Part shown: positions 1-54,494 of the stretch, one piece after another
Numbering within the stretch: position 1 is the first letter of the stretch
Layout of the letters: every line of letters begins with the position of its first letter
NCBI GenBank assembly: GCA_039621445.1
Contig: CP154954.1
Coordinates: 30,322,395 to 30,386,394, forward strand
Length of the DNA stretch: 64,000 nucleotides
Direction: 5' to 3'
DNA from: Euglena gracilis
Lineage: Eukaryota
Position numbers and translations under genes: made by a program
The notes under the pieces: model-generated
Database searches by the model: none
What the model was told of the DNA's origin: nothing
The model's input: only the letters and a program-made list of their open reading frames with translations

Positions 1-1284
1 ATACTTTTTGGCGCCAAAAATATTTGAAAAGGTGCTATTTTTAGCACTTTTCGCGATTTTTCGACCATTTTTTTTGTGGGTCCCCCAGGACCCCCCCAGG
101 GGATGGGTGGGTGGGGGGACCCCCGTCCCCCCCCCCCCCCGGTCTTAAATAAATCAAGAGCGGGAGAGGGTTGGGTGGGTGGGGGCCATACCATTGCCAA
201 GCACGTCGACCCCCCCCCCATTCCCTGCATGGTGGGTGGGGGGGTCGACCACCCCCCCCCACCCTCTGCATGGTGGGTGGGGGGGGGGTCGACCACCCCC
301 CCCCCACCACCTCTTCCCGTGTTTCCGGGAGCACCAATTTTTGGACCCGAAAAAAATTTTCCGGCGCCGGGTGTTTTTTTGACCCGTTTTGGGACCCATA
401 TAGGGGGTCCCCCCCAAAAAACACCCAAAAACCGCATTTTTTCACACCTTCCAAAAATTCAACATTTTCTCAAAATGTTGATTTTGAGAGGTTTTTGAAG
501 CAAAAAAATGCCATTGAAAGTCCAAAAAATTTCAACGAGAAAAAATGGCAGTAAAATTTGACTGTGCCAAAATTTTGTCCACTTTTTTTGACCTTCGTTT
601 TTTTCACCCCCCTCCTAAAAACTACCAATTTTTAACCCTGAAATTTTTGATATTTTTTTGTGAAAAAAATGTGGGTTTCCATCAAAAAATCATGTGTTTT
701 GGGTTCATTTTTCAAAAAAAAATTCAAAAATCTTCCCGGCCAATATCCCCTTTTTCCTGAAATCGGTGAAAATGCTGTGGTGGGTGGGGGGGGTCGACCC
801 CCCCCACCTCCCGGGTGGGGGGGTCGACCACCCCCCCCCCCCCACCAGGCCTTCCCGTTCTGCCCTGGGGGGGTTGTCAGGATTGGCCGACGTGGCCACC
901 TGGCGCCAAAGGCGCCGGATTTTTTTTTTTTGACCAAAAATGTTTTGATTTTTGGCCAATTTTGGCCGAGTAGCCAAAGTGACCAACCCCCTCCCCCAGG
1001 AAGGAGGTGGGAAGTGGGTGACTGGTTTTTGAAAAGTGACTGATTGGTTTTTTGAAAGTGGAAAGTAAGTAAGGGGGTCGGTAAACAATGGTATGGTCCG
1101 GTCCCTTATGTGGGGGGGGGTGTCCCTGCGGAAGCTTGGGCATGGGTTCCGGAGAGAAGCACCAGAAAAAATTGGGCAAGGCGGTCCCCTGCTGGGCTGG
1201 GTGGGGGGTCTTTAAAAGAAGCCGGGGGAGCACAATTGGTCGGCAATCCATGGCCCCTCTGAAGATTAAATCCTCCTTGCAAGG

Positions 1285-1380
1285 ACTGTGAAGTCTGGCA
1301 ACAAGGTGGTTGTGGAGAAGTCCACAGTGCCTGTTCGCTGCAGCGTTGCCATTGAGCGAGTCTTGAAGGCATGCAGTGCT
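1285..1380 (+). CDS. UGDH: UGDH exon ([32 protein letters not shown])
   Basis: EKSTVPV motif; 5' boundary uncertain by a few nt. Confidence 0.85.
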
Positions 1381-4300
1381 GATCAGGGTTTGACGTAAGG
1401 AGGTCGACCGCGCACCGTTTCGAACAATTGCCTTTTGTAACGATCCCCCCACTTTGCACCTATTGCATGCAAGAAGCTCTGGGAGTGTGGAAGCTGAGTC
1501 ACATGAAAATGAAATGCGAGTGGATGGACCGCTTCTAAGCAGAGGAGGGCACCATAAGGAACCTCCATGACTTTTCTTTTGATGATTGCCTCAAAAAACC
1601 CCTATCTGCGACCCACATAGGTCACACATTGGACCCACATAGGACACACTCTGGACCCACATAGGACACACACCCATAGACCCACATAGGACACACTCTG
1701 GCAATGACCCTCTCTGATTCAACCCTGACGACCCACAACGACCCATTGCTGTAATCATTGGTTATACTCTGTTCACATGTTTTGGGCATTAAAAATGCTC
1801 TCCACTTTCCTTGATTACCCCTCTTTCGTGTCAAGTCCAACAAAAATCACAAATATTGAGAACCAAACCTGGATTTTGAAAGCAGGTTGGCAAATTTAGC
1901 AGCACATCACTCCAGAATTAGGAATATGAAAATTATGGCAAAGAAGCATCTGGAAATTTTCTGGGTGTTTTACCAAACCACCCAGAAAGTTTGTTTGTTA
2001 TAATTTTTTTTTGATTGCCCTATACCCAGAGGGTTGAGTTACCCCATCCATTGGCCATGGGTTTGCTCCATTGTGTCACTGTTGTGTGCCACTGATGGGG
2101 TGTTTGACTCCCAAATTATGTTCTTGTCAATCCCTGGTGTGACACCTCTGCCACATTTGAAGTACTGTCAAACCCAGAGCACACCAGTGCTCCCATTTTT
2201 TTCGCCACCATTTTTCACCGGTCATCCTTTCCTCAAAAGTTGGTTCATGACAATCCTGGTCCATTTTTTTCCCACCGAGAGATGCCTTGTCAGAGTCAAC
2301 ACACCACATCGGTGTCATCAGTCTGAGTGCTGACGTGCTGGCGAGTTTCTTGCCGAGGGGACAGCCATTGAGGATCTTCTGAAACCCGACCGTGTGTTGA
2401 TCAGGTATTATTTTGCATATATCTTTTACATATGCAATATAATATATATATATATATATATATGTATTATATATGCTTATTTTAGGGTCAAATTTTTTCC
2501 AACACTTTTAGGCATTCTAAGGAATTTTAAGGCACAATTTTCCAGGGTGGTCCATTGGCGATCCGGGCATCGAACCAACGTTTTTGATTTCGCACGTGGT
2601 CCAAAATCAAGGAAAGTCGAAAAACGCAGTTTTTGAGTTTTGGTTGGATAGACAATGTTTCAGCGATGCCAGAGATCATTTTTCTTCCCGAAGTCGGCCT
2701 GTTTTGCCGAGATTTTGCGTTTCATTTTTGCTCGGTCGGAGAAGATTCTGCTGGTCTCATTTCTTAAGTCATTTTAACGCATTTTAAGGCATTCTGGCCA
2801 AAATTTAAGGTGCATTTTAAGGTATTTTAAGGCTTTTTCAAGGTACTTTTAATGATGATAATAATTATAATAATGCCTGGCGCTGATCGGTGGTTCTCAA
2901 ACACCCAGCGGGCAGAAGGCCTGTGAGCTCCTCTGCTCTGTGTATGCACGATGGGTGCCGCACAGCTGATTTTGGTTGCACATAGTTTCATTTCAACTTC
3001 CATTTCCATCCATTGATGGTTTCCAGTTTTGTGTGTTTCTTTGATCCTAGGTCCCCTTTTTTGTGTTGGTTTTTGGACAGCTCATTGCGAATTGTTTATT
3101 TTTGCCTTTTTAACAGATCCCAAAAATCCAAAATAAACAAAAAATACAATTTTTTTTTGCTGGACACCCAACATGTTTAAACAAAAAAAATCTTGTGATG
3201 GAGACTCAAGCATGTTTGCACTGCTCAAAAAACGAAAGTTTTTTTTTTGAGAAATTGCATGAACATATTTTCTGTATTTCAACAAGTTTTCAACAAGGCG
3301 GATGATAATTGGGTAAGGCTTTCAAAAAGTTAACTCCAAATGTTGAATGGTTCTTTTTTTTAAATTATTTTTTCTGTTAATCTTTTTGTCAACCTTGTTT
3401 GGCTCAATTTTGGAGAAGATTGGAACAAAATGAGTATGATTTTTTGAAGAAAAAAAATGACAATTCTCAGTGACATTTTAAATGGACACAAGAGGACAAC
3501 TTTTTGCAAGGATGCTTTTTACTGCTGTCTGCAGTGTAATTACGCGGGAAAAATTTCTTCTCTTCTTCTGCCCTGTGCTCGGCACGTGCTGCTTGGATCT
3601 TGCTGGAAAGGCGGTAATTCGGACCCTCCACAAAAACAGTGGGGGCGATGCCTGAAGGGGGGGGTTCCCCCCAGTGCCTGCTATTATATCAAACCCGGGA
3701 GGGGAGCTCCGTTCGTGGTGGCACACCCTGCTGCAGCCCTGCCCAGGGATAGTTGGGAAGCCCTTTGGTTTTGAGGTAGGTAGTTGGGGGGTCCGGACCA
3801 GGGTTTGATATAAGGAGGGCGTACATGGTTTAGGTGGGGGGGGTGTCCCCCCCCCACCCCCCCCCCTCCTGGCCCGCAGGGGGGGGGGTCCGGCCCACCC
3901 CCCCCCCCACCTGCCAGGGGGGTCCGGACCGACCCTCGGGGGTTCCCGGGACCCCCCCAAAAAGGGTCAATTTTTTCCTCTGGCGCTTCGCGCCGAAATT
4001 TTTTTGCATTTTTGGCACATTTTTGCCCAAAAAGTGCCCAAAATGGCACTTTTGGTCGTTTTGGGGGGTCAAAAATTTTCGGCCACCCTGACCGCGCACC
4101 TGTTTAGGTGGGGGGGGTGGGTGTCCCCCCACCCCCCCCCTCCTGGCCCGCACGGGGGGGGCCCGGACCCCCCCCCCCCACCTGTCCTTATATCAAACCC
4201 TGGTCCGGACCCCCCCCCGTTGTTGGAGGGGTGTTCAGCAGGTTCCAAAAAATAGTTGTTTTCCTTCCAGCACTTCACTGGAAAGTGTAATTTTCACCTT

Positions 4301-7300
4301 CTTCCTCACTTTTGAGCATATTGCCCACCCATTTTTGGATGTTTTGGTGTCTTCCACACAAAAAAAAAACGGTCAAAAAGTATTTTTTTTGGGGTTTGGT
4401 CTATTTTCAAATGGAATCAGGGATTTTCCAACAATTTTGGACTGGTATCCGTACCTTTGCCCGTCCACAAATTGAAAAAAAAATTTGGTCCCATTTCAGT
4501 GACGAGGTTGGAGGGAGGGAGTCCGACCCCCCCCCCCCCCCCCCCCGCCCCTCAAGGCCTCCCATGCGTCCCTGGCCCTGCCCCTGACAATCTGATGATG
4601 GCCGGGATTTTTCTTTTTGCAATTCTGGTCCTGAGTGGGCGCGCCAGTCCCCCTCCCCCCAAGGTCAGCTGCCTCTGCGGGAGCGGATCCTGACCACCAA
4701 CCAGTGGTCCAGCGAGCTCAGCAAGCTCACCGCCAACGCGTTTCTGGCGCAGCGCATCTCCTCCATCAACTCCATCTCCGCCGTCTGCGAGGCCACCGGG
4801 GCGGACATCGACGAGGTCGCGTTCGCCATCGGCCGAGACTCTCGCATTGGCCCCAACCGGGCCGATACTGTCGATACAACACAACACAACACAAGGCAAC
4901 TCAACCCAAAACACCACACCACACCACACCACACTACATTACAACACAAACCGCGCCGTCGTTTTGTTGGTTTGTGTTGCACAAAAAGGGCGTTCACACC
5001 AGAGTTGCAACACATTTGCCACAGGAGACATGATTACCCAACAAATTAAAATTTTAAAAGCTCCGGGGTTTACTTCTTAAAAAGGTGACGGGCCCACCCC
5101 AAAATCCCAGTGACTGCTGTCCGAAACGTTGTCATGGACAGGCACCCAGAAGCCAGAAACCCCGGATCTTAACACAGGACCTGCCTGGCCGGAAGTTTCT
5201 CAAGGCGTCCGTTGGATTCGGTGGCTCCTGCTTTCAGAAGGACATCCTGAACCTGGTCTACCTATCCAATTCTTTGGGGCTGCACGAGGTGGGGGATTAT
5301 TGGTACAGCGTGGTGACCACCCCTTCGCTGAGACATTTTTTCACTGCACTGGCAATTGCCAGGAATTCCTTCGCCAGCCAGATCCTCCAACAACATGGCC
5401 GTCAACAATTCTAGAAAATTGAATTTTCTTCTTCCCATCAGGCTTTTCTTTTTAAGTGAGGTGCCGACCCCACGGGGGGGGGGGGGCGGTCACGGGGGGG
5501 TGCTGGGGCAGGCACCAGGCTTGTGCTTAGTGGGGGGCCTACCCCACGGGGGGGGGGGGGGGGTGCTCGGGGCAGGCACCCCAAAGCACCTGGTCCGACC
5601 CTCCCCCCTCGCGGGGGGGGTAGGGTTTTGGGGGGTGCCTGCCCCTAGCAGGCACCCCCCTCCGACCCCGGAAAAGGCCATTTTCAATGAAAGTTTTCTG
5701 GGTCCCCCCCCCGGACACCTATCCCCCCCGGGAGGGTGTGCCTGCTAGGGGCAGGCACGCTATAGCACCCCCCCCTCCCCCCCCCGGTTGGTAAGCACAA
5801 GCATGGCAGGCACCAAATAGCACCCATAGGGGGGTCCCCCCTCCGACCCCAGCGCCGAAGGCATCGGGGGCCCGGAAAAGGCCATTTTCAATGAAAATTT
5901 TCTGGGTCCCCCCCCCCCGCACCCCACCCTATAGCACCCCCCCCTCCCTCTGGTCGGTAAGAAATAGTCTGCTTCCCATTTTTCAACCTTTTTCCCCACA
6001 GCACAAAGTTGTCCAGGAGTTTTGAGCCTTTTTGAAACGGATCGAAAGTGCACCGAGTTCCACTTCCTGTTTCAGCGCAGGAGTGGAAGCAGCGATGAAT
6101 GACTATCAACGCCGGCGCTTTGTGGAGATGATCGTGCGGACCATGTTTGACACAGTGACCAACAAGAAGATTGCAGTGTTGGGCTTTGCCTTCAAGAAGG
6201 ACACGGGCGATACGCGGGAGAGCTCCGCCATTCCAGTGTGCAGCTCGCTCCTGGATGATGGAGCACTGGTCCACTGCTACGCCCAGGGACACGGTGCCAA
6301 GTTGTGTCACCACCTGTTTTTTTTGTTATTCCGAAGATTCTTTTTAAACCCCCCCCCTGCCCACCAACCCCCCTGTTTACTGACCACCCCTGGTCGGGGT
6401 TGCCGGTCAGGGGGTGCGTGCGACACCCACCCCCTGGCCAGGGGTTTGGGTTACCTAAAAAAAAAAGCTTTACAGAAGCAGGGGTTTTGGCACTTTGGTC
6501 TTATGACCATCCCCCAGCAGGAGATTGCAGATATGGGGGTGTGCCACGGTCGGTCGGTAAGGGGCTGGTGGCAGGTTGCAAATTCTGCAAAAATTCGGCA
6601 CCTTCGCTGACAGGTCGTTTCCTCTGGGGGATATTCTTTGTCATTGGACCTGTCAGTGGACCCGGGGGGGGGGGGCCTCCAGTTGGCCAGCAGCCTTTTC
6701 CCAGACCATCTCATCAACAAGTTTTATTTGTTTTCCAGGGACTTCGATTTTTTGATTCGACCCCAGCCGAACCCAGTTCCAGCCGGGGGACCCCAAGGGG
6801 GTCAACCGGTAGCCTTTTCCAACCGGCGTAGGAACTCTTTTGCTCATTGGAAGCAAAAACACGAGGACAAAAAAAATCTGGCTCCGGCGATTCTCTGACT
6901 CACTTTTGTCTATTTTGGCCCATTTTGCACCTCCAAAAGCAAAAAAAAACTACGTTCCGAGAGGAAAAAATTTATTGGGGGTTGGGGCAAAAAAGAAGAA
7001 TATTTTTTGGGGACTGAGGGAGGGCAGAGACTGCCAAAATTGTTTTTTCCTGTTGTTTCCTTTTCTTGTTGGAGGTGTGGGGATGAAAAAAATAAAATGA
7101 AATTCCTCCTCTTTTTGGGCATTGGTGTAGGGGTGGGGAGGAGTGTGGGGAGTGCAGGGGGGGGGGGTGGCGGTCAACCTGCCAAAGATTTTTTTCTTTT
7201 TTCAGATGTAGCTCGCATTCAATATTGGTTACCTGTGAGGAGGCTCTGCAGAGCCTCCGCGGAGGCACCCAGGCAACCAGCCTCTGCTGAGGCTCAGGTA

Positions 7301-10300
7301 ACCAGCCTCCACAGAGACTTGGGTAACCAAAAGTCAGGATTCCACACAGGGGTTTTTTTAGTCGTGGACCCCCGGGGGGGGAGGGTGGGTGGGTCCGGCC
7401 CCGGGGGGGGTCCCCCTGGAGGGGGGTGGGATTTCCTTTTCGGCGCCGAAGGTGCCGAAATTTTTTGAAAAGGTGCTTTTTTTAGCACTTCTCGCGATTT
7501 TTCGGCCATTTTTTTGTGGGTCCCCCGGGACCCCCCCCCCCCCGGCCCGGGGGCCCCCCCCAGGGGGGTGGGGACCCCGCCCTCGGTCTTAAAAATCCCC
7601 TGATTCCACATTTGCACGGGCCCCTGCTGGCCTCCCCCTCTTTGGCTGAATTGACGCCCTAATTGCAATAGAGTCCCTGACCCTATTCCTTCAATTAACC
7701 ACAAATACATTTGATTTTGGGACTTTTTGTTCATACAATCACAATTTTGATGCAATACAAACTTTGGCCAAAGGTGGTTCTGAAACCTAAACATAGAGGT
7801 CGCATGGGCCCACCAAAGGGTCGGGCCGACCTCTGGATGAAAATCTTTTAAAGGGGGGGGTGATGCAATGGCTTGGCCATGGTTGACCATGGCCGGAAGC
7901 CCCCCCCCCCCCGATAGAAGCGCGGGGCTGCTGCAAGCGCAGGGTGAATAAAGGACAATCCAAATCCAAATACACTCATGCTGCCGAAGGCGGCGGTCCA
8001 CCACAAACGCACCCCCATTTGATGAGTTTTTGAAAGGAGATCAACAAAAATTGCAGCCAGGGTCCAAATAGAAGCGCACCTAGGCTTCCATTGGGGGATG
8101 GGTTTATCCTAGTTGAGTGACTCTTGGACCCTGTTGGCCAATCAAACAACGCTTCAACTGCTGCATTGGAATCAGGGCGTCGCTTGATGACCCCCTCCCC
8201 CCCGGAGTCCAGCTCAGAGGCTGGAAAACTTGGACTGGCTGGAAATAGGCTGCTGGCTGACCTCCAAGGGTACTGGAATTGGGTCCATCCTGGGGTCGAA
8301 CCAGGTGCAAGGAAAAATCGAAACTGCAAAAACCCCCAGAAGCTGCTAATTATGCAAACAATTGATCTTTTCGACCCCAAAAATTTGCCCTGGCCCCAGG
8401 TAACCCCTGGGTTCCCCCGGAGGTGAGCCGGCCCAAAGCCAACCCATTTTTTTTGCCAATTTTTGGCCCATTTTTGAACCAGGATTTTTTTTAAGTCAGA
8501 AGATCCGGGTGGGTGGGTGGGTGGGTCCTGGACCCCCCCCCCACCCGGGTCCCAGGCAGGAGACATGGGTATGGGTTTCAGCGCAAAGCGCCGAAAGTTT
8601 TTTTCTTTGGGAAATGGCCTCAGACGCATCCGGGGTCCCCCCCCCCCCCCCGCGTCCCACGCCAAGCGGGGTCTTAAAAAGAAGCCTGCCCACCCTGGTT
8701 CAAGGCTTTCTAAGACTTTCAAGGCATTTTGGCCCAAAAATTTAAGGCACATTTTAAGGCATTTTAACGTTTTTAAAGACACCTTAAAAAATGATGATGC
8801 CTGGTTATGGGCAGGCAACCACAGCACAATGCACCCCCCCAGGTTGGTGAAAATAAAACCTGCCCCAAGGTTTCCCATACGACCACAAGCCAGGTAAGGC
8901 GGTTACCCTTGACGTTCCCAACTGGAGTTCTTACCTCTGGGCTACACGAGCCTTGGCACCTATCCCTGCCATGACCCTAAGGTCACTGAGGAGCAAATGC
9001 TTCAAGACCTGAACGAGGTGGCAGAGGGCAACCAGCACCTGCTGAACCAAATAAAGTCTAATTACCGGATTGAGAAGTCGGCCGTGGAGGCGTGTAAGAA
9101 TGCCCACGCCATTGTGGTGTTGGCGAGGGAAGTGCAAATCGCCACCTCACCACCCCACTGATCAGTTGTTTTTTTTTGTGTCAGATTTGTTGGGCTTGGG
9201 GGCCATGATGTCGGCCCAAACAAACAGCTCCCACGGTTGATTGTGACCCCGATTGAAGATTGTCCCTGGAAATTTGACTCTCTCTGTTCAGCTTTCGCAG
9301 AGTCCCCACCAGGACGGCGCTGAACCCTCTCCCAGTAAAGCTTGCTGACCCGGAAGGTTGAACTTCCCTACCGAAGACCGAATGGGACGAGTTCAAGATG
9401 CTGGATTACCAGCAGATCTTCAAGGAGATGACGAAGCCCGCCTTCCTGTTTGATGGGCGCGGGTACCTGGACCTGAAGGTCAGGCCATTGCTCCGGGTGG
9501 GGGATACGATGAACCTCCCTTCTGTGTCCAGACCGCATGGTAATACCTCCCCGGCGGCAACTGTCACCCCCTCAACTTTTGGCAATTTGCCAATGGCAAA
9601 AAAAAATGCACCAAAAGATGGAGTCTTTGGAAGTTTTTGTTGTTGATCAATCTCTGGATGTACGCATGAACTCGGGATTTGAATGCTCAAGAATGTGCTT
9701 GAAGGGATCAGAAGTGTTTTCAAGAGATCGGAAAGTTACTGATTATTCGTCTACCCCAGTGGGCAAATGTCACCCCCTCTGCCCGCCTTTTTGCCGTCCC
9801 CCAATATGTCAGCCCCCCCCCCCACATCTGCTGGCTAAATTGTTGTGTGACAATTGCTGGGGGGGGCAAGGTTCAATATACGGAGGGTGTGCGGGGTTTA
9901 GGTGGGGTGGGGTGCCTCCCCTCCTGGAACAGGGGGTCGGACCATGCCATTGCTTAACACCTGTCCAACTACCCCCCCCCCCCCCCGGGGGTGACTGATT
10001 GGTTTTTTCAGAGGGAACTGACTGGTTTTCTGGCCAAGACCCCCCGGGGGGGCAGGCCCGAAAATGAAAAGTGGCTGGCCTGGCACCAAAGGCGCTGGAA
10101 TTTTTTTGGATTTTTTGAGATTTCTTGGCAAATGTTCATTGCATATTCAAGAGTGCCCCCCCCCCCCCGCCCGGGGGGTAAAGTGACTGACTGGTTTTTC
10201 GGAAAAAGTGACTGACCGGTTTTTTCAGAGTGGAAAGTGACCCCCCGGGTCGCCAAGTAATGGTATGGGTCGGACACCCTCCCCCTGCCAAGGGAGGGGT

Positions 10301-10720
10301 TCCAGACCAACCCTCCCCCAAAAAATCAAAAAACATAGTTTAATTTTCCTTCTGACACTTTTCACTTTGCGCTGGAAAATTTTGACAAATTTCGCCCAAA
10401 AAGTGTCCAAAATGACATGTTTGCCATTTGGGGTTAATTTTTTTTGGCCCGCCGCTTCGCGCTGGCCGAAAATCAGTCAGCCGGACTGCGCCACTGTTTA
10501 GGTGGGGGGGGCACCCCACCTCCCCCCTCCTGCACCGGAGGGGAGGTCCGACCCCCCCCCCCCCCCCCCCTTATATCAAACCCTGGGGGGGGGGGGGCAG
10601 CCCTCTCCAGAAGTTTCCCGCACGGCTGAGTGGAGAAGCCGCGGCCTGGAGCCGGCCCTGCGGGAAATCGGCTTTGATGTCTTTTCCATCGGCCGGACAA
10701 AGGCCCAGCGGTACAATTGA
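1285..10720 (+). CDS. UGDH: UDP-glucose 6-dehydrogenase, 5'-partial, spliced: join(~1285-1380,2141-2176,2343-2398,2885-2959,4677-4854,5193-5314,6091-6280,8973-9121,9376-9477,10654-10720)
   Basis: The joined exons give one open frame (1071 nt, ending TGA at 10718-10720) with colinear UGDH motifs: [62 protein letters not shown] (catalytic Cys), [40 protein letters not shown]. The N-terminal exons lie upstream of the window; the first exon start is approximate. Confidence 0.95.
1381..2140 (+). other. Nonconventional intron 1 (3+4 geometry)
   Basis: GAT-CAGGGTTTGAC ... GTCAATCCCTG-GTGT; 10/11 paired; no GT-AG. Confidence 0.85.
2141..2176 (+). CDS. UGDH: UGDH 36-nt exon ([12 protein letters not shown])
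   Basis: Supplies the conserved LSNP preceding EFLAEG; both flanking introns have terminal stems. Confidence 0.85.
2177..2342 (+). other. Nonconventional intron 2
   Basis: AGCACACCAGTGCTC pairs with GAGTGCTGACGTGCT (11 WC + 2 GU of 15); CAC at +4..+6, GTG at -8..-6. Confidence 0.85.
2343..2398 (+). CDS. UGDH: UGDH exon ([19 protein letters not shown])
   Basis: Conserved motif. Confidence 0.92.
2399..2884 (+). other. Nonconventional intron 3
   Basis: GAT-CAGGTATTATT ... AATAATGCCTG-GCGCT. Confidence 0.9.
2885..2959 (+). CDS. UGDH: UGDH exon ([25 protein letters not shown])
   Basis: Conserved motif, in frame with neighbouring exons. Confidence 0.9.
2960..4676 (+). other. Nonconventional intron 4
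   Basis: GCA-CAGCTGATTTTGG ... CCAAGGTCAGCTG-CCTCT (11 WC + 2 GU). Confidence 0.9.
3799..4202. mobile_element. MITE with CAG...CTG ends, nested in intron 4
   Basis: TIR CAGGGTTTGATATAAGGA / TCCTTATATCAAACCCTG; flanked on both sides by GTCCGGAC (8 bp, palindromic). Confidence 0.85.
4677..4854 (+). CDS. UGDH: UGDH exon ([32 protein letters not shown]...DSRIGP)
   Basis: Highly conserved central helix. Confidence 0.95.
4855..5192 (+). other. Nonconventional intron 5
   Basis: AAC-CGGGC ... GCCTG-GCCGG; short 5-bp stem; no GT-AG. Confidence 0.8.
5193..5314 (+). CDS. UGDH: UGDH exon ([24 protein letters not shown]...YWYSVV)
   Basis: Catalytic GGSCFQKD motif. Confidence 0.95.
5315..6090 (+). other. 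Nonconventional intron 6
   Basis: GAC-CACCCCTTCGCTGAGACA ... TGTTTCAGCGCAGGAGTG-GAAGC (15 WC + 1 GU of 18). Confidence 0.9.
6091..6280 (+). CDS. UGDH: UGDH exon ([10 protein letters not shown]...[15 protein letters not shown]...VHCY)
   Basis: Conserved C-terminal domain motif. Confidence 0.95.
6281..8972 (+). other. Nonconventional intron 7 (3+4 geometry)
   Basis: GCC-CAGGGACACGGTGCCAAG ... CTTGGCACCTATCCCTG-CCAT. Confidence 0.9.
7347..7602. mobile_element. MITE with perfect 8-bp TSD, nested in intron 7
   Basis: TIR CAGGGGTTTTTTTAG / CTTAAAAATCCCCTG; TSD ATTCCACA at 7339-7346 and 7603-7610; related copy at ~1-160. Confidence 0.9.
8973..9121 (+). CDS. UGDH: UGDH exon ([10 protein letters not shown]...[12 protein letters not shown])
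   Basis: DPKV and AHAIVV motifs. Confidence 0.92.
9122..9375 (+). other. Intron 8, nonconventional stem; a 1-nt shift reads GC...AG
   Basis: AGGGAAGTGCAA (9126-9137) pairs with TTGAACTTCCCT (9358-9369), 11/12. Confidence 0.85.
9376..9477 (+). CDS. UGDH: UGDH exon ([34 protein letters not shown])
   Basis: TEW and FDGR motifs. Confidence 0.93.
9478..10653 (+). other. Intron 9, nonconventional stem; overlaps an in-frame GT...AG alternative
   Basis: GGT-CAGGCC ... GGCCTG-GAGCC. Confidence 0.8.
9867..10585. mobile_element. MITE of the 3799-4202 family with secondary insertions, nested in intron 9
   Basis: Left end CAAGGTTCAATATACGGAGGG, right end CTTATATCAAACCCTG; G-runs of at least 8 on both flanks. 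Confidence 0.7.
10654..10720 (+). CDS. UGDH: UGDH last exon ([21 protein letters not shown])
   Basis: LREIGF..SIG C-terminal motif and stop codon. Confidence 0.9.
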
Positions 10721-10826
10721 GCACTATCCTTATCCATCTGCCCCTGATGGCGTCCGCTCATTCCGACGTCCCCTCTCACCGGACTGCCCCTCTCAGATGG
10801 GGAAGGCTGCATGTGTGTGGGTGTGG

Positions 10827-10831
<5 letters not shown>

Positions 10832-10858
<27 letters not shown>
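10832..10858. repeat. (TG)n microsatellite in probable UGDH 3' UTR
   Basis: Seen directly. Confidence 0.9.
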
Positions 10859-10861
<3 letters not shown>

Positions 10862-10928
10862 TGTCACAACAGAAATGTACTGCTCCTGAGAATTCCCCCT
10901 CCCCAGGCACCAAGTGGGGCTGGTTTTG

Positions 10929-11355: not shown

Positions 11356-13644
11356 GGTTTTGGACGGAAGGTCCCTACACTGCGGTTCCAATTGCGATTA
11401 CACTGTGATTTCCTTTGGACGTCCTTTTTTTGCATTTTCTTTCCAGAGGCTTGCAAATGCAATTAACCCCCCCCCCCAAATAATACCCCCCCCCCCCCCG
11501 GTTTATTATTTGGGCACCCGAAGTCGGGGTCCAGGGGGGTTTATTATTTGGGCAAAAATTTCGAAGACAAAAATTGACCCGAAAACCCCTCCACAGGCTC
11601 CAATGGTCACTTTTTTGGCATTTTGGGGCTTTTTTTTGAAAATTGGGTGCTTTTTTGGCAGGGCTCCATCAAATTTTTTTCCAAAGCGTTCAGAAAATTG
11701 GGGCATTTTCTAGAGGAATTTTGCAGAATGCGTATACCAGAACTAACAAAAGAGCAATAGTCCGACATGTTAGGGATATGGTGATCAAACACTTCCCAAC
11801 ACCGCACGGGATGGGTCTGGGTGGGGGGGGGGAAGTGTTTGCCAGACGAGGCACTCCAGGGCACCGCGAGCCTGAAAGTGGTCCCCCAAATAAGACCTGA
11901 CCCAAAATTTGGGCCAGGTCCCAAAAAGCGTCACTTTCCAGGTTTCCAAAAACACCCAAAATTTTTCATCTGTGCTCTACGCCATGTGTCAACATGTGTC
12001 ATGTGTGTTAAAAATTGAATTCCCCCAGTGTTGTTGTGCTTCAAAAGTGTCAAATAATTGTAATCCAGGAAAAATTTTCATCTCCAGCGCTTTGCACCGT
12101 CAGTGGGAGTCTGGAATTGGCGGGGGGGTTTTTTTATAGATTTTTTCTTTGTCGGCCCAGTGGGGGGGGGGCTTCCTTTTGGGGAGGTCTTACAGTAATA
12201 ATAGTGGGCATAATAGGACACCTGAAAATTGGTGGGTCAAACCTAGGGCAGAACGGGAATCGGCCAAACCGCCAGGGTGGTGGTGTGGGGGGGGGGGTCG
12301 ACTACCCCCCCCCCCTGCATTGGCGGTGGTGATGGTGTGCACACACCATCAGGGGGACCCTGGACCCCCCCCCCCCCCGGGGCTGGTGGCCAGGCCGGAC
12401 GAAGGGGTAAAGGGCACCAAAAAGGCAGCCACAGTGCACACAGGGGGCTGGCTGGTGGCTGTTTTCCCGTGTCCAGCAAAATGGCTAGCCAGTGGACCCC
12501 TGCCTCCCGGGGCTTAAGCAATGGCCTGACCAGATGGTCACCCCCGGCCGGGGGCTTAAGCAATGGTCGGTATATAGGGGTGGTCGGTGGACAAGAGGAC
12601 AGGGTGGGTACCCCCCCTTTGCCCAACGACCACCCCTAACCCCCGGTCGGGGGTTGTAGATCAGGGGGTGTGTATGACCGCCCCCCGTGGTCGGGGTTGT
12701 AGGTGACCTTGGGAAAACAGGGGTTTTTTCAGGTCAGGGTGTGTATGCCCCCCCCCCCCCGTCGGGGGTTGTAGGAACCCGGTCGGTGAGCAAAAGCACC
12801 TCGAAACTGACATTGACCCGGAAATTTTTGGTTTTGAGGACGGGCAAACACTCAGAACGCCGGTTCAGGTTGCCGCCTGAACCGGCGTTCTGGACACGTG
12901 TTTGCATCGAAGTCAGGGTCAAGATAAAATCCTTACCCTGACCCTACTCCTGAAATAGCCCAAAATTTTTGTCTGTTATCTCACGACAGACTCTCCCCCC
13001 AAAACCCTTGGGCCCGGAAGGGAATAGCCCCTTCTGAGGGCTTTGAGCGGATTCTGGGGTGACCATCCTGGGGGGTCGGGCTGACTTTGGGATGGGACAC
13101 GGACCTCTGGGTCGCTTCAAAAATGCCTGATTTTGCTTTAAAAATGAAACAGAATGCTCATTTTTTGAAATTTTTTGAACGCTCCTCATGCGGAAAACAC
13201 CAAACCATTAAAAAAATTGGCAATATGCTCAAAAATGAGGGAGGAAGTTGTTTTTTTGTTCATTTTCCGGCGCGCAGCGCGGGAAAAAATTGCCATTTTT
13301 GAAACCTGCTGAGGAGGGTCTGGATACACCCCAACATCCAGGGGGGGGGGTCGGCAACCCCCCACCGCCTGATTCGATACCGACGGGCTTCCCATCAATC
13401 CCTGTGGAGGTTTGGTTCTACATAAGGAGGGTATCACCCCTTCTTGACTGCCAGACCCCGCTGTGGCCGGACCCCACCCCAAGGTCAAGTTTTATTTAGG
13501 CGATTTGCACCGAAATAATTTTGGAAATTTTCGCAAGTTTGCCAAAGGTGCCCAAAACGGCATCTGGGTTGATTTTGGGGTTTCGGAAAAATTTTGGCCA
13601 AAAGTCGGTCATCTTGGCTGCATGTCTGTTTGTTTGAACCAGGG

Positions 13645-23994: not shown

Positions 23995-25918
23995 TGTAGG
24001 GGGTGTGGGCCTCACCACTTGTAGGGGGTGTGGGCCTCACCACTCCCACAACCCCCTGGCGGCTGGCCCTTGGCGCCTGCAGGCCCTGCCACTGGCTGGG
24101 ATCCATCAATTCACCCAGGGGGCCTGGCACCCACCTGGGACTTTCCTTGGAACTTTTCATGGTAATCCCACTTCCCAATTCCCAGCGCTGGCACAAATCA
24201 AGATACTTCCCAGAACTGAACAACCAAAGTCAAACTGAACATGCTGCTTGCCACTGTAAACACAAACACAGACAGAATTTTGTGTAATTCCTAATTCCTC
24301 AGCTGGAATCTTAATCTCTTTCCCAGCGCCCACACTCCCCTCCTTAAAAAGCTGCCCCGGGCAGCTAAACCTGCCTTCGGCAAAAAGGCGCTGGGATTTT
24401 TTTTTTTTTTTTTCGTTCACGAACACAATCTTGAATCTTTCTTTCTGTCTGTCTGTTTTATTTTTTTTTCTCTGTGGGGCGGGGCGGGGGTCGAAGGCCG
24501 ACCCTTAGGGGGGTCGGTCTCCTACAGCAGCAGGGGGGAGCAGCAGGCACCCGCACCGCCTTGGGCCGTTCTGGCGGGGGTTTCCCCCCAGAACAGCCCA
24601 AAGATACCCCTTGGGCCGTCATCTCTGGAATTTTTTTCTCGTTTTTCCCCTCTTTTTTGCCCTTTTTTGCCCGTCCAGAGATGGGGGTCCAGGGGCTGGT
24701 GGGGGTCCTGGGGAGGGGGCTCGCAGGTGCAGCGGGAGGGGGTTACCGCGGGGAGGGCTTCGGCCACAGGCCTGGGAGGGGGGCCCAGCCCACGCCGTCC
24801 CGGCGGGCTTCGGCCACAACGCCTGAGGGCTTCGGCCCAGGCATACGGGAGGGGGACCCAGCCCACACCATCCCGGCGGGCTTCGGCCACAGCTGGTGAG
24901 GGCTTCGGCCCAGGGCATGCGGGAGGGGGACCCAGCCCACACCATCCCAGGCAGGGCTTCGGCCTCAGCCCCTCGGGGCCTCCTTCGCCTTCTGTCGGCG
25001 CTCCTTCCTTCTCCTTCCTCTTGACTTCTCCGGCGAGCCTCCGCCCTCTCCATGCCCCACTGGGGCATCCTGCATCTCGCTTCCTGCATCACCATCTCCA
25101 GCATGCACCTCTCGAACATCTCCTTCCACAGCATTCACATCTCTGGCATTCCGGTCTTTGGCATTCACATCTCTGACATCTCCTTCCTTGGCATTCCCAT
25201 CTCTGGCATTGCAATCCTTGGCATTCCCATCTCTGGCATTGCAATCCTTGGCATTCACATCTCTGGCATTGCAATCCTTGGCATTCCCATCTCTGGCATT
25301 GCAATCCCTGGCATTCCCGTCTCTGGCATTGCAATCCTTGACATTCACCAGCCTGGCATCAGAGGCCACCCTGCCATGGGCCCTGAGCCTGCCAGCAGCA
25401 GCTGCTGCTGCACGACTGGCACACCACGAACAGCAACAATGTGCATCAAAACTTGAATAATACTCCATCAGGTTGATGTTCACTCCTGCACTCCAGGCAT
25501 TCTTGATGATCTCCTGCAGGCACATGCCATGCCTGATCCCGGCATGGCGGACAGCCGCCACGTGGCTGGTAGGCATGTTGTTTGACTGGCAGTGTTCAGT
25601 TTGTGTAGGGGGTGTGGGCCTCACCACTCCCACAACCCCCTGGCGGCTGGCCCTTGGCGCCTGCAGGCCCTGCCACTGGCTGGGATCCATCAATTCACCC
25701 AGGGGGCCTGGCACCCACCTGGGACTTTCCTTGGAACTTTTCATGGTAATCCCACTTCCCAATTCCCAGCGCTGGCACAAATCAAGATACTTCCCAGAAC
25801 TGAACAACCAAAGTCAAACTGAACATGCTGCTTGCCACTGTAAACACAAACACAGACAGAATTTTGTGTAATTCCTAATTCCTCAGCTGGAATCTTAATC
25901 TCTTTCCCAGCGCCCACA
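23995..25918 (-). mobile_element. Small non-autonomous LTR element (TRIM-like), ~315-bp LTRs, putative self-priming
   Basis: LTRs 23995/24020-24334 and 25604-25918 with TG...CA ends; 4-bp TSD CCTA; minus-strand PPT AAGGAGGGGAG; internal 30-bp repeats at 25130-25345. Confidence 0.88.
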
Positions 25919-43796: not shown

Positions 43797-45049
43797 TGAG
43801 TGTCTATTTGTTTTCGCAGAATACATGGCGGACAATTGAAAGCTCCTGGTGGGGTCAAATACACAAATCAAGAGTTCAATTGGCATCGCAAGTTACTTAC
43901 AAGTCCCGCTGCTGCAGTTAGAAGGAGTCCTGAAGTCCTGCTGGTGCAGGCAGAGGAAGTCCTGCTGGTGCAGGCAGAAGTTGGTACTGGAGCTACGTTG
44001 TACTGCTGTTGCTCGAAATGCTGTCTTCAGTGGCGTACTGCGCTTCCCAGCCCTGCTGGTACCTTTTGGGCCTGCAAAGGCCCCCATTTGGGCCTGCAAA
44101 GGTCCCTCCATCTGGGCCTGCAAAGGCCCCTCGTTATGGGCCTGCAAAGGCCACCCCTTTGGGCCTGCAAAGGCCTCCCATCTGCCAACCAGTAAGTGCT
44201 ACTTTCAGCTCCAGTGTCTTCTCTTCTGTTTTCTGCATTGCATTCCAAACTTCTGATCAATTGCAGTGGCAAACCCTTAGTTTTCAGGCACATGTTACAC
44301 CAAAAGCTGTGGCACATTTTGCAGCAGTTTTAACTTGACATCCAAAAACATTTTGTCAACATTTTGTCCCCAACCTATCAGTGACACCGTTTTGCCCAGT
44401 GGCCTGTAAAGGCCCCGGGCCTGCAAAGGCCCCCCTGACACCATTTTGGTCCAGTGGCCTGCAAAGGCCCTGCGCCTGAAAAGGACGCCCTGTGACACCA
44501 TTTCGTCCTGTTGCACCATTTTGTCCCAGTGGCCTCCAAAAACCATGGGCCTGCAAATGCTCCCCTTGAAACCATTTTGTATTAGTTGCCTGAAGAGTCT
44601 CCGAGCCTGAAAAGGCCCCGAAAACCTCAAACCACGCCTATCCACATTCTGGCCTGCAACAGTGGCCCCCCAGCCAGCCAGCACATCCACATTTTGGCTG
44701 GCAACTGTGACCCCCCAGCCAGCCAGCATAGCCACAGTTTGGCCTGCAACAGTGGCCCCCCAGCCAGCCATTTCTGCCAGATTCTTGTGGCCTGCAACCG
44801 AGGCAACCCAGCGAAATGAACTTAACAACCCCCAGGTTCCCTCTCTGCTAATCGGAAAAGACCACCCAACGTCGGCCAAACAACGAAAAGTGCTTGTGCA
44901 TTGCACACCTGCAAAAGAAAGCACACAGCCTAGCCGGTCAGCATCAGGGGGAGCAGGCCAAGGTCGGTCCTTGCTGGCCTGCGGGGACATTGAAAGTATC
45001 CCCGGGCCTGCTACAGACCCACCATTGGTTTCGGGTGAGGATATTGACA
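43797..45049 (+). mobile_element. 5' region of a CRE-like element (homologous to 56855-58935)
   Basis: Shared start GAGTGTCTATTT..ATACATGGCGGACAATTGAAAGCTCC, GGCCTGCAAAGGCC repeats, NELNNPQVPS..KVLV peptide, then 2A-like GDIESIPGP. Confidence 0.75.
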
Positions 45050-50839: not shown

Positions 50840-52070
50840 GGGTCATTGCTGTTCTGAACCCTCTTGGAGGCGAGCTCTTAGCAGGCTTTTGGCCAACAAG
50901 GCTGTTAAATTCCCGTGGCCAACAAGGCTTTCAATACAAGAGAGGAACAGTTCCTCAGTTGCCTTGGCTGCCAGTGCTGTTTTTTGTCTTGTCTGTCTGC
51001 CTTGTGGCTTTTGTCGGAGATTGGAGCCGAACCAAGGATCAAACACAGGACGGGTGAGATATAGGCGAGCTCGTTCTGCAATTTTTCTCCCTACCGTCGC
51101 CCAGTTCGATCGCCCGCCACGCTGCAAAGGACAAAGCACCGCTTTGGCGAACGCCCACAAGCGATGCAGGGTTTCCCAGCCAGGTTCCCTGTTGAAGTGC
51201 CTCAACGGTTGCAGGTAGGTTTGATTGACATTGAGGAGCGCTCCACGTGGCAGGTATACAAGGGTGCCTGCATCATCAAAAGAAATTTCCTCAAAAGTTG
51301 GATGAAGGGAGGGTGGGCATGGAGCAGAGAATGCATGGAGCAGAGAAACCCAGCAATGTGATTTTGACCAATGGGGGTCGGTGGGGGTCCAGCTGGGGCT
51401 GGTGACGATGCTGCTGCGGTTGTTGCCACTGAGGATGAAGAGCACCCATAGGGGGGTTGGAGAACTTCAGGAAAGGCGCCGCCTGGTTTGCCTGCATACA
51501 CATGGCCCCAACATCTGACGGGGGGGGAAAGTCCTGGTCCTTGTGTGCCAATCGGGTTCTCCATGATGACCATGGAGCACGTTGAGGGCTGGCCTTGTTG
51601 GCAAATGGTTGGAACTGTACAGGGGGGGGTCCCAAGGTTTGACCAACTGTACTGCCTTGTCCCCAATTCCCCCATTGGAAAGGGGATCTTGGTTCCCAAA
51701 TTTGCCGGGTCCATTGTTCTGATTCAAAGGCTGCGTGACCTTCACCCGCCAGAGCCTCCACGGCGCATCCCAGTGTCCGACTGTTCCCAAACGATTACCT
51801 TTCCTTCGGACACGGAAAACACAAAAGAGCGATTGCATAATTTGCGCAAAGCAATATTCGGTTTCCCAAAAGTATCCGCACCGGGCCCTTCTGGCTTGAG
51901 ACCTGACCACCTCAAGGCCATGGTTGGAGACTACCCACGGGCTTGTGGAGACGACCTCCTCGAAGTGCTTGATACCTTCATCTGTCGAGCAATTACAAAC
52001 GGTGTTCACCCCGGCACGGCCCCAATTCTTTCCTCCACCAGGTTGACACCTCTGCAAAAACAAAACAAAA
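50840..52070. mobile_element. Rearranged CRE-like fragment (50840-~51500 on -, ~51711-52070 on +)
   Basis: WETLHRLWAFAKAVL..GGR on minus; LRDLHP..SAPGPSGLRPDHL on plus; both homologous to 59374-60279. Confidence 0.85.
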
Positions 52071-52074
52071 ATGT

Positions 52075-54494
52075 TTGCGGATCCCTGAATTGCGTTACCG
52101 CTCTTCAACCCGCGAACCAGGTCGACACCTACGCGATGCGTGTATGGAACACATTTAATTTTGGTCAATACCGTATTTTGGAGGAATTGTTCTCTCAAAT
52201 TGCGGTTGTGGCTGATTCCTTCGATTTGTCGTTGGAAATTGATGCGTTTTCATCAAAAGCGCATGCGCGCTTGTCGCGATATTGGTCGCGACATTCCAAC
52301 GCATTTCTTAAATTTTGGGGTGATACGGTGCTATGGATGCACCCTCCCCCAAAACTTATCCCGGATGTGGTGGAGAAAATCCTCCGCGATGAAGCGCGAG
52401 GAGCTCTCCTCATACCCGTCAATCCGAATGCGGATTGGTTTCACCAACTATCCTATGTGTGCTTTCATTGGTGGGATTTACCCACTGATGTACCACTATT
52501 TGAGGATTTTTGTGGTATATTATTACCACCTGTTAAAGAAATCATTTTTCGCGTTTGTTTCTTCGACGCATTCGGAATATCCGATGTGCGTGTGCCAAGA
52601 TACCTTGGTACGGATGGGGATGCCACACCCTCAACGCAGATTTCTGCGGTCATTGAGAGTGCGGACCAGCACCCCAAGTCTGCTGACTATTGTTCGCGAA
52701 TTACTCGCGAATTTCATGGTGTACTGGATAACCCAGTATACGCCTGCGACATCGACCCCGCGATTCGCGGTCCATTCGGTGTTTGCAAAATCGAGCTCAA
52801 GGATGGCCCTAAACCCATGCACCGGAAATTCTTCCGTTGTTCGAGTTGACGCGAACAAGCTCTCAACGAGATGATTGAGAAGCTCATCCAGCGGAAGTGG
52901 ATTATCCCTTCCAAGAGCGAGTGGACATCACAAGCTTTTGTGGTTCCCAAACCCGCTGACCAGTCTGGTCAGAAGAAGTGGAGACTAGTGCTGGATTACC
53001 GGTACCTGAACTCCCAAACGAAGGATGACCCCTGGCCGTTACCGTTGATCGAGGATTTGATCACCAAGCCACCAAGCAATCGGATAACCGGTTATGGTCA
53101 ATCTTTGATCTGGAAGACGGTTTCCATCAGATGCATTTGCATCCTGATTCACAACCGTACACGGCATTCGTGACATCCAAGGGTGTGTACCAATGGACGG
53201 TACTCCCCATGGGTGTTAAGAATGGCCCAGCCATGTTTCAGCGCATGATCCAGTGGGTTTTGCGCGATTTACCGTTTGCTCTGGTGTACATCGATGATGT
53301 ACTGGTGGGAACCCAACCGCCATCCGCGAAATCGGGCGAGGATATCCTCGAACCGCATTATCGCGATGTGCGGGCGGTATTATCCGCGTTCAAAAAGCAT
53401 TTGCTTTTTGTGAAGGGTTCCAAAATGCACCTGTTTCGCAAAATTATTAAGTTTTGCGGGCATATCCTGAGTAACGGGCAGCGTAAAGCCGCACCCAGTA
53501 AGATGGAGGCCATTAAGAAATGGACTCCTGAGGTCATTAAGACCTTAACGCATTTAAAGGGATTTTTGGGATTAGCCCAATATTACGCGATTCACATGAA
53601 AGATTTCGCGAAAATCGCGGTACCCCTAACCCGACAGCTCAAAAATCGGACACCCGATAACGTCAAAGTCATTTGGGATGACCAAATGCGCAAGGCCTTG
53701 AATAAAATCAAGGACTTGCTCCTCGAGAACGTGGTTCTCGATATCGCGGATCCATATAAACCGTATGTCCGCTGCCATGAAAAGCCGCATCACCCTCATC
53801 CGGGTTCCCAGGATAAAACCAGGGGGCTCGGCTGAGAGGATCCGCAACTTTTTGCGTGTGACCTGGGGTATAGATAACCACCAGGTTAAACTGGCTCAAG
53901 AACTCATGCCATCGGCATCTTCTGCCCACTGATGACATGGCCTTGTTTAGGTCCTCGGTATACCAGTGTTGAAGGCTCTCATGATCCGTCAACACAAGTA
54001 CCTGGACCAAGCTGCTGGCTATCCAGCTGTGGAATTTCTGGAGAATAAGCACAATGGCATATGTCTCCTTTTCGCGAATGCTCCATTTAACCTGTCCTTT
54101 CCCGTTGTCGCCCTGTAGCTTCCTGCTGAAGAAAGCCACAGGTCGGAGCTCATTCGCCGCATTATGCTGGCTAAGAACTCCGCCAACAGCGTAATCGCTG
54201 CTGTCGACCTCCAGGATCCATGAGGCTGACCAGTTCGCACGTCGATCCGACGCTGCGGACAACATGCTCGATTCACTCCCTGTTTCCCGGGTATATCGCA
54301 GCATCGCCATTTCACCATTGCGTGGAAGGCGTCGGCGTCGACGCACTGCCGGACCCCGTCGCATTACGCGTACGGAAACTCCGACCCCCTTATTTTTCCG
54401 CGAATGGGATTATTCGCGTGACCCTATATATAGTACCATTGTGAATAGACTTCGTAATGGTGAATCCATAGAGAATTACTCTCTATCACCATGA
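52075..54494 (+). mobile_element. Ty3/Gypsy pol fragment: Dam-like MT + RT + inverted RNase H
   Basis: WRLVLDYRYLN, LPMGVKNGPAMFQR, VYIDD, FCGH, FLGLAQYY on +; VDSSDYAVGGVLSQ, EKETYAI, TDH, ADPLSR on - (53771-54213). Confidence 0.92.

Follow-up and report, generated by a model that had tools for sequence, protein, structure and literature searches.

Introners, which Huff et al. are said to have described in 2016, are reportedly spliceosomal introns that derive from transposons and are found in Micromonas, Aureococcus and dinoflagellates. The nonconventional introns of euglenids, which make up 71.8% of all introns in Euglena agilis, follow a code in which three nucleotides (nt) precede CAG at the 5′ end and CTG at the 3′ end is followed by 5 nt and then a purine, and arbitrary complementary sequence suffices for splicing (PMC12501133). 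How these introns originate and how they are removed is a question as old as their description. An origin from elements resembling MITEs (transposable elements of the miniature inverted-repeat type) has appeared in print as a hypothesis (PMC3935182, 2014; PMC11282704, 2024; PMC12501133, 2025; PMC12621601, 2025), and one of these papers mentions inverted ends and ‘TSD-like’ repeats (TSD, target site duplication) of nonconventional introns (PMC11282704). What has so far spoken for the hypothesis is general in nature, namely the presence of inverted repeats and of short direct repeats, and papers up to December 2025 still say that ‘origins remain unclear’ or that such an origin is ‘plausible to assume’. 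Here, we analyse a 64,000-nt stretch of Euglena gracilis nuclear DNA (contig CP154954.1, positions 30,322,395 to 30,386,394 of the forward strand; hereafter the window, with positions numbered from its first letter) containing the gene for UDP-glucose 6-dehydrogenase (UGDH). Intron 1 of this gene begins, from its fourth nucleotide (+4), with the terminal sequence of a MITE family that also lies free within other introns of the same gene.

Read from +4, intron 1 (CAGGGTTTGACGTAAGGAGGTCG, 1384-1406) is identical at 20/23 positions to the start of the element MITE-1 (CAGGGTTTGATATAAGGAGGGCG, 3799-3821), and past the CAG 16/19 bases agree; CAGGGTTYGAYRTAAGGAGG is the type of terminal sequence that marks the MITE-1 family. 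A second motif follows, with GACCGCGCACC-GTTT (1406-1420) matching GACCGCGCACCTGTTT (4090-4105) at 15/16 positions with one gap. Terminal repeat and subterminal motif together amount to ~38 nt in common from +4, and reach far past the CAG that nonconventional splicing needs. The original prediction, made from the letters of the window without knowing its source, the euglenid signature of CAG at +4 or the published MITE hypothesis, had proposed both likenesses and had placed free copies inside introns 4 and 9. Its coordinates and letters were borne out, and the RNA joints described below confirm that 1384 is +4 of a real spliced intron, that the free copies, at 3799 and ~9867-10585, lie inside introns 4 and 9 and that the introns had been numbered correctly. 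The features concerned are as follows.

1381..2140, + strand: intron 1, 760 nt, nonconventional, GAT-CAG…CTG-GTGT then G, with an RNA joint at 1379>2140.
1384..1406, + strand: terminal repeat of the MITE type, placed at +4 in intron 1, the counterpart of 3799-3821.
1406..1420, + strand: subterminal motif GACCGCGCACCGTTT, common to 4090-4105 of MITE-1 and present more loosely at ~10484-10500 of MITE-9.
3799..4202, + strand: MITE-1, 404 bp, in intron 4; the first 18 nt of both ends are identical as inverted repeats.
9867..10585, + strand: MITE-9, 719 bp, a diverged copy of the MITE-1 family in intron 9, with G8 on both sides.

Chance is excluded as the source of the 5′ end match. A degenerate 20-mer pattern of the end, at up to three mismatches, occurs at four places in the window against 0.00 expected (100 shuffles). 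The first 16 nt of intron 1, again at up to three mismatches, have three other matches, each at the terminus of a MITE (mean over shuffles 0.0), while the other 15 intron ends put through the same test give 0-2 matches, as in their shuffles. When the 241 CAGGG sites of the window are ranked by how closely they resemble the MITE end, intron 1 comes third with its 5′ end, preceded by family termini only (score 12, the best non-family score being 6), and clustering of 700 CAGG sites groups it only with 3799+, 4202- and 10585-, a family of four. The 20-mer pattern was also used to scan a metagenome collection, where it found four loci, all one unrelated locus without MITE features past the 20-mer; by estimate, a collection of that size should give about as many matches by chance as were seen.

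Chance or convergence may also be considered as a rival explanation. CAGGG would be needed both by nonconventional splicing and by a transposase, and the remaining likeness would be accidental or would reflect selection for a good stem. Splicing does require CAG at +4 (PMC12501133), and CAGGG is frequent in the window, as the 241 sites attest. Against this explanation, the agreement of 16/19 bases lies beyond the CAG, the second motif of 15 nt follows it, and shuffles are expected to yield 0.00 matches. Moreover, efficient splicing is seen in synthetic introns whose stems are arbitrary (PMC12501133), and intron 1 shows no pairing between its positions 12-38 and its 3′ end; since arbitrary complementary sequence suffices for splicing, selection does not explain the 38-nt match. 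The shuffle, 16-mer, 241-site and 700-site tests bring chance or convergence close to refutation, and we give it next to no credence.

Intron 1 is a nonconventional euglenid intron. The borders of the UGDH introns were set first from junction peptides and afterwards from RNA, for which raw reads X21 and contigs X15 and X16 (two probable RNA runs) were placed on 1250-10750, with DNA run X1 for comparison. The intron 1 joint is present in 142+135 = 277 X21 reads and in one contig each of X15 and X16, and in none of the sequences of X1; the peptide across the junction is KACSADTSATFE. The cut can slide by 3 nt (skipped part 1380-2139 up to 1383-2142), which gives four mRNA-equivalent cut positions, 0/4 with GT/GC-AG borders. 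With the cut at 1381-2140, CAG lies at +4..+6 but CTG at -7..-5, and the two spacers sum to 7 rather than 8 nt; introns whose 3′ spacer is 1 nt shorter are reported to splice nonetheless, though less efficiently (PMC12501133). The 5′ arm CAGGGTTTGAC pairs with the 3′ arm GTCAATCCCTG (2121-2136, +) at 10/11 bases, and the end duplex has an energy of -25.3 kcal/mol against -18.5±3.5 for shuffles, 10/200 of which reach -25.3. The exon after the intron begins with a purine (G at 2141). The interior of ~700 nt has a depth of 148-163 in DNA, the single-copy level, and a BLAST comparison of the intron with the window gave only the self-match, the interior being unlike any MITE copy. A tandem repeat with a unit of ~20 nt (GACCCACATAGGACACAC…) lies inside the intron at 1600-1700.

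The free copies are true MITEs and true insertions, having terminal inverted repeats, no coding match and perfect 8-bp duplications. MITE-1 is flanked by the target duplication GTCCGGAC, identical at 8/8 positions (3791-3798 and 4203-4210), and the open reading frames (ORFs) overlapping MITE-1 and MITE-9 have no Pfam match. Three further elements lie in the same gene; the first two came from a scan of the window for CAG…CTG inverted-repeat pairs.

3744..4574, unstranded: outer MITE-like element, 831 bp, with ends CAGGGATAG…/…CCCTG and perfect 8-bp flanks GCCCTGCC; it encloses MITE-1.
7347..7602, unstranded: element of a second MITE family, 256 bp, with ends CAGGGGTTTTT… and a perfect 8-bp duplication ATTCCACA; in intron 7.
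9943..10267, unstranded: a third element type, 325 bp, CAT-ended (CATGCCATTGCT…), nested in MITE-9, with a perfect 8-bp duplication GGTCGGAC.

Target-type flanks are identical at 8/8 positions in 5/5 elements, where a random pair would reach 8/8 with P ~7e-5, although the G8 flanks of MITE-9 are of low complexity and therefore uninformative as a target duplication. Perfect non-simple 8-bp flanks accompany 3/1092 CAG-ended inverted-repeat pairs versus 19/69,086 pairs with all other end trinucleotides. The MITE-1 family is represented in the 64 kb by two full copies and end fragments. Summed DNA word depth reaches 2.25 million in the bin 3786-4102 versus ~130-190 in single-copy bins, a figure that is inflated by G/C runs and is not a copy number. 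The direct link that had been predicted between an intron boundary and the end of a mobile element therefore holds, in that the intron is spliced, MITE-1 has a perfect 8-bp target duplication and ~38 nt are in common.

Two observations concern these elements and their targets more widely. The targets GTCCGGAC and GGTCGGAC are nearly alike, and the motif itself belongs to the local G/C-rich repeats. Ends of the second family (CAGGGGTTTTTTYAG…) are found at 7347, 8480, 12718 and 15177 (all +), with a recognisable partner end and duplication at 7347 only.

We propose, with a probability of roughly 0.6, that intron 1 arose by insertion into coding sequence of a non-autonomous cut-and-paste DNA element of the CAGGG…CCCTG-ended, 8-bp-duplicating (hAT-like) group to which the MITEs lying free in introns 4, 7 and 9 belong. 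The 8-bp target GTGCT+GAC, which is still in the mRNA, would have been duplicated upon insertion. The nonconventional machinery would pair both inverted ends and place its cuts outside them, at a distance of 3 nt from CAG and of 5 nt from CTG; because 3+5 = 8 nt would be removed with the element, exactly one copy of the duplication would go, and the pre-insertion exon and its reading frame would be restored. At intron 1 the right-hand copy would since have lost one base (GTGCTGAT vs GTG-TGAC), leaving the 4-nt 3′ spacer, and a spacer sum of 7 is what a one-base loss would give. The interior would be unique and only the ends would be common with the apparently high-copy MITE, as in the Ds elements of maize; Ds elements have only their ends in common (PMC3260210), and in maize Ds can function as an intron (cited in PMC3935182).

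Several results are consistent with an insertion of this kind. The 5′ cut of intron 1 lies 3 nt before an element-type CAG, and the duplications of the free copies abut CAG and CTG exactly. The flanks of intron 1, GTGCTGAT and GTGTGACA, have 6 matches with one gap (P ~0.023), and over eight introns the flanks match at 29/64 positions versus ~17 expected. The inferred target GTGCTGAC agrees at 6/8 positions with the MITE-1 target, and the two conform to nTnnnnAn, which the hAT element Hermes prefers as a target (PMC10368747); in this small sample, both fixed positions of the pattern fit in 3/7 targets (MITE-1, intron 1 and intron 3). In E. agilis, a newly gained, strain-specific nonconventional intron of gapC has eight-nucleotide direct repeats, which its authors take as a sign of break repair (PMC4770533).

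Other results weigh against this origin. The sample is one intron of one gene. The original prediction had also held that the 3′ arm of intron 1 resembles the right end of the MITE, and here it failed: the arm (2121-2136) takes position 159/241 among CAGGG sites, no better than a random one, so that homology is demonstrated for one end only. The ~700-nt interior matches no MITE copy and is at single-copy depth, so intron 1 is no copy of the apparently high-copy MITE and at most a relative sharing its ends. The flank match needs a gap and reaches only P ~0.02, and the total spacer is 7 nt instead of 8. Flank matches of at least 6/8 number 6 in CAG-ended pairs versus 7 in a shifted control, and thus show no excess; the excess is limited to perfect matches. 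Pfam found no DDE or hAT transposase domain in 300/552 window ORFs (ORFs of at least 55 aa, low-complexity ORFs dropped, a second batch taken only beyond 11 kb), so that the hAT label is drawn solely from duplication length and end letters. Finally, 8-bp duplications are also made by the Merlin elements of E. gracilis (PMC8101967).

The confinement of family likeness to the 5′ 38 nt, together with the unique, single-copy interior, would also suit an older nonconventional intron whose 5′ end later gained MITE sequence, either by insertion of a MITE (perhaps 1384-1727) at the intron start or from a CAGGG-starting MITE copy, through ectopic recombination or gene conversion. An internal right-end-like site, …TTCAACCCTG, does end at 1727; it matches the left end of the intron at 12/20 positions and ties the best non-family score against the MITE end. 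To leave the exon junction intact, however, an insertion at the intron start would have had to hit the very point that separates +3 from +4. An 8-bp duplication is absent after 1727 (1/8 match), there is no second GTGCTGAT followed by CAG within intron 1, and it is the flanks of the whole intron that carry a trace of duplication, albeit a gapped one. We consider a late gain of this kind unlikely.

The relationship could also run in the opposite direction, with the MITE family descending from a nonconventional intron with CAG…CTG ends that became mobile, so that the intron end would be the ancestral one. Nonconventional introns are said to leave as full-length circles (PMC11282704, PMC12501133), which could in principle be copied into DNA, and every free copy seen in the window sits within introns, that is, in transcribed DNA. 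Yet the perfect 8-bp duplications adjoin the inverted ends exactly (5/5), which is the mark of integration by a DNA transposase, whereas reverse splicing does not leave it; the same end type and duplication length recur in several families of the window that are unrelated to each other; and the interior of intron 1 is shared with no copy. Descent of the MITEs from an intron thus appears improbable.

The CAG…CTG ends and 8-bp duplications of the free elements look hAT-like. The short inverted ends of hAT elements are of the CAG/TAG type, with the consensus YARNG. In the window, 8-bp duplications are found in 5/5 elements, and the ends read CAGGG except in the element at 9943, which has CAT. Elements of the hAT type have 8-bp duplications, and one hAT MITE (Mar) has the end CAG(G/A)GGTAGGC (PMC3517528). 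Pfam hits among the ORFs scanned were UGDH exons and retroelement domains, and Rfam gave 0 matches over the whole window. Merlin was considered as an alternative placement and rejected: its inverted ends begin with GG (PMC8101967), whereas here the duplications adjoin CAG/CTG directly, and moving the boundary to GG loses the identity of the flanks.

A concrete family with its end at +4 of a spliced intron, and with free copies that carry perfect 8-bp duplications, makes the MITE idea countable genome-wide. It also offers a simple reason for the 3+5-nt spacers and indicates which features to expect in an autonomous partner. A broader proposition, which we put forward tentatively and would sooner bet against than for, is that euglenid nonconventional splicing amounts in effect to excising one class of DNA transposon precisely from RNA, and that nonconventional introns, the commonest introns of Euglena with more than half of the total, are mostly CAG…CTG-ended, 8-bp-duplicating hAT-like insertions. 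Were this so, the rule that CAG is preceded by 3 nt and CTG followed by 5 nt would owe its existence to the removal of exactly one target duplication (3+5 = 8), and the pyrimidine|purine preference at both junctions would come from two cuts that fall alike at 5|6 of the duplicated target. Bolder corollaries would be that the MITEs lying free within introns (3799-4202, 7347-7602) also undergo splicing from the pre-mRNA, and that the excision machinery co-evolved with, or derives from, a system for recognising transposon ends.

The window as a whole has ~50% G+C, with abundant G-runs, C-runs and short repeats. The gene was identified as UGDH by comparing translated exon pieces with a protein database; the best match to the exon translation is the eukprot protein EG_transcript_14324 (98% over a 65-residue query), whose prefix EG we take to stand for Euglena gracilis, and the named UGDH of Eutreptiella gymnastica is also among the matches. 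EG_transcript_14324 (protein P0003) was placed by tblastn as ten exon blocks from 1276 to 10720. The fully aligning blocks are 96-100% identical to it, and a 20-residue stretch of exon 9 is 95% identical (tblastn). Among the RNA alignments listed, joints are present for 8/9 introns, with skipped lengths of 760, 166, 1717, 338, 776, 2692, 254 and 1176 nt, and none of these joints is among the alignments listed for DNA run X1. The intron 3 joint is not among the RNA alignments listed, the reads there being cut at repeats, and its junction is placed by protein P0003 only. Further exons and introns of the gene are the following.

1278..1380, + strand: UGDH exon before intron 1, from tblastn to P0003; RNA has a loose end at 1277 with letters of an upstream exon, which lies outside the mapped stretch.
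2141..2176, + strand: micro-exon of 13 residues between two nonconventional introns, from protein match, junction peptides and RNA.
2399..2884, + strand: intron 3, nonconventional, GAT-CAG…CTG-GCGCT then G, from protein P0003.
2960..4676, + strand: intron 4, nonconventional, GCA-CAG…CTG-CCTCT then G, with an RNA joint that skips 1717 nt; contains the nested MITEs.
9478..10653, + strand: intron 9, nonconventional, GGT-CAGGCC…GGCCTG-GAGCC then G, with an RNA joint that skips 1176 nt (220+238 X21 reads); contains MITE-9.

GT/GC-AG borders are absent in at least 8/9 UGDH introns, intron 8 being the one that could be GC-AG, and these introns conform to the nonconventional pattern of euglenids or to variants of it already described. 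The pattern of 3 nt and CAG … CTG, 5 nt and a purine is found in introns 3, 4 and 9, with variant ends of CGG/CTG in intron 5 and of CAC/GTG in introns 2 and 6, and paired ends are present in all UGDH introns examined. The 8-nt flanks of intron 3 (GTGTTGAT / GCGCTGAT) are identical at 6/8 positions. Introns 1, 3 and 6 have a nearly common 5′ junction, GTGNT|GAY followed by CAG or CAC (1376-1386, 2394-2404 and 5310-5320), which could be the target preference of an inserting element or a preference of splicing.

Likenesses between other intron ends and repeat ends were also seen. From +4 (9481-9492), intron 9 starts with CAGGCCATTGCT, which agrees at 12/12 positions with a repeat end at 12517-12528(-) and at 11/12 with the end of the nested element at 9943-9954. 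This may be a second link between an intron and an element, though it lies within the range of shuffles. The 3′ ends of intron 7 and of intron 1 resemble the end type at 3744/13404 (12/19 beyond CAG and 13/16, respectively). Because the likenesses of introns 7 and 9 and of the 3′ end of intron 1 are at or near shuffles, they serve as leads only.

Some further features of the exons and of the remainder of the window may be recorded. The motif CAGTGCT / AGTGCTGA(C) occurs three times, at 1374-1382 (the exon end before intron 1), 2185-2191 (the 5′ end of intron 2) and 2326-2334 (near the 3′ end of intron 2); the copy at 2326-2334 equals the spliced exon 1-exon 2 junction over 9 nt, which is unexplained. 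An alternative letter is found in one-third to two-thirds of RNA reads at exonic positions 1326, 2894, 2930, 2942, 4836, 5219, 6259, 9399 and 9460, and at some of these DNA run X1 also has the other letter, which suggests two expressed alleles, nearly identical copies of the gene or a strain that differs from the window. A (TG)n microsatellite lies directly past the UGDH stop codon at 10806-10862. Identical CAGG-site contexts led to two pairs of near-identical stretches (24079-24126 vs 25663-25710, and 43848-44911 vs 56770-58915), which are segmental or dispersed repeats. Remains of retroelements, with a reverse transcriptase (E 2.6e-23) and, on the opposite strand, a reverse transcriptase-RNase H (E 1.1e-22), are found at 51452-54409 and 60525-60899. 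The same regions have a 465-aa ORF with a weak match to Dam adenine-methyltransferase (E 2.3e-4, below the cut-off of Pfam); retrotransposons carrying methyltransferases of this type are the subject of a 2026 preprint in which E. gracilis is mentioned.

Compared with described transposons, the window elements share their host and 8-bp target duplications with the Merlin elements of E. gracilis, but Merlin ends start with GG, whereas the window elements start with CAG (or CAT) straight after the duplication. With non-autonomous hAT elements (Ds and the Mar MITE) they have in common the 8-bp duplication and short, imperfect CAG(G) inverted ends, as well as members that share only ends and subterminal motifs. 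Unlike plant or insect MITEs, the window elements carry internal G/C-run repeats, and their placement with hAT comes from ends and duplications only.

Compared with euglenid nonconventional introns (Tessier/Canaday/Milanowski; code defined in PNAS 2025, PMC12501133), intron 1 likewise has borders other than GT-AG, a CAG occupying +4..+6, a CTG close to the 3′ end, ends that pair, a following exon starting with a purine, a cut made slidable by short direct repeats, and removal from the mRNA. It differs from the code in its 3′ spacer of 4 rather than 5 nt, and in having an end assignable to an identified repeat family with free copies, something present in the euglenid papers covered as a hypothesis only. 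The literature covered, which leaves outside it most subscription journals and supplements, has no nonconventional intron tied to an identified repeat family, no linking of the 3+5 spacers to an 8-bp duplication, and no naming of hAT for Euglena introns.

The parallel with introners (PMC11282704) is close in the proposed course of events: insertion into an exon of a DNA element with inverted ends, duplication of the target, and exact removal from RNA leaving one copy. Introners, however, leave via the spliceosome, at GT/AG sites made by the element and the duplication, whereas intron 1 leaves via the nonconventional system. Introners are also defined by many near-identical intron copies, in contrast to the one intron copy with a unique interior, in the one verified gene of the window, described here. 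Transposon-derived introns as a kind are already known, and this locus would add to them the link of a nonconventional intron to an identified family of elements.

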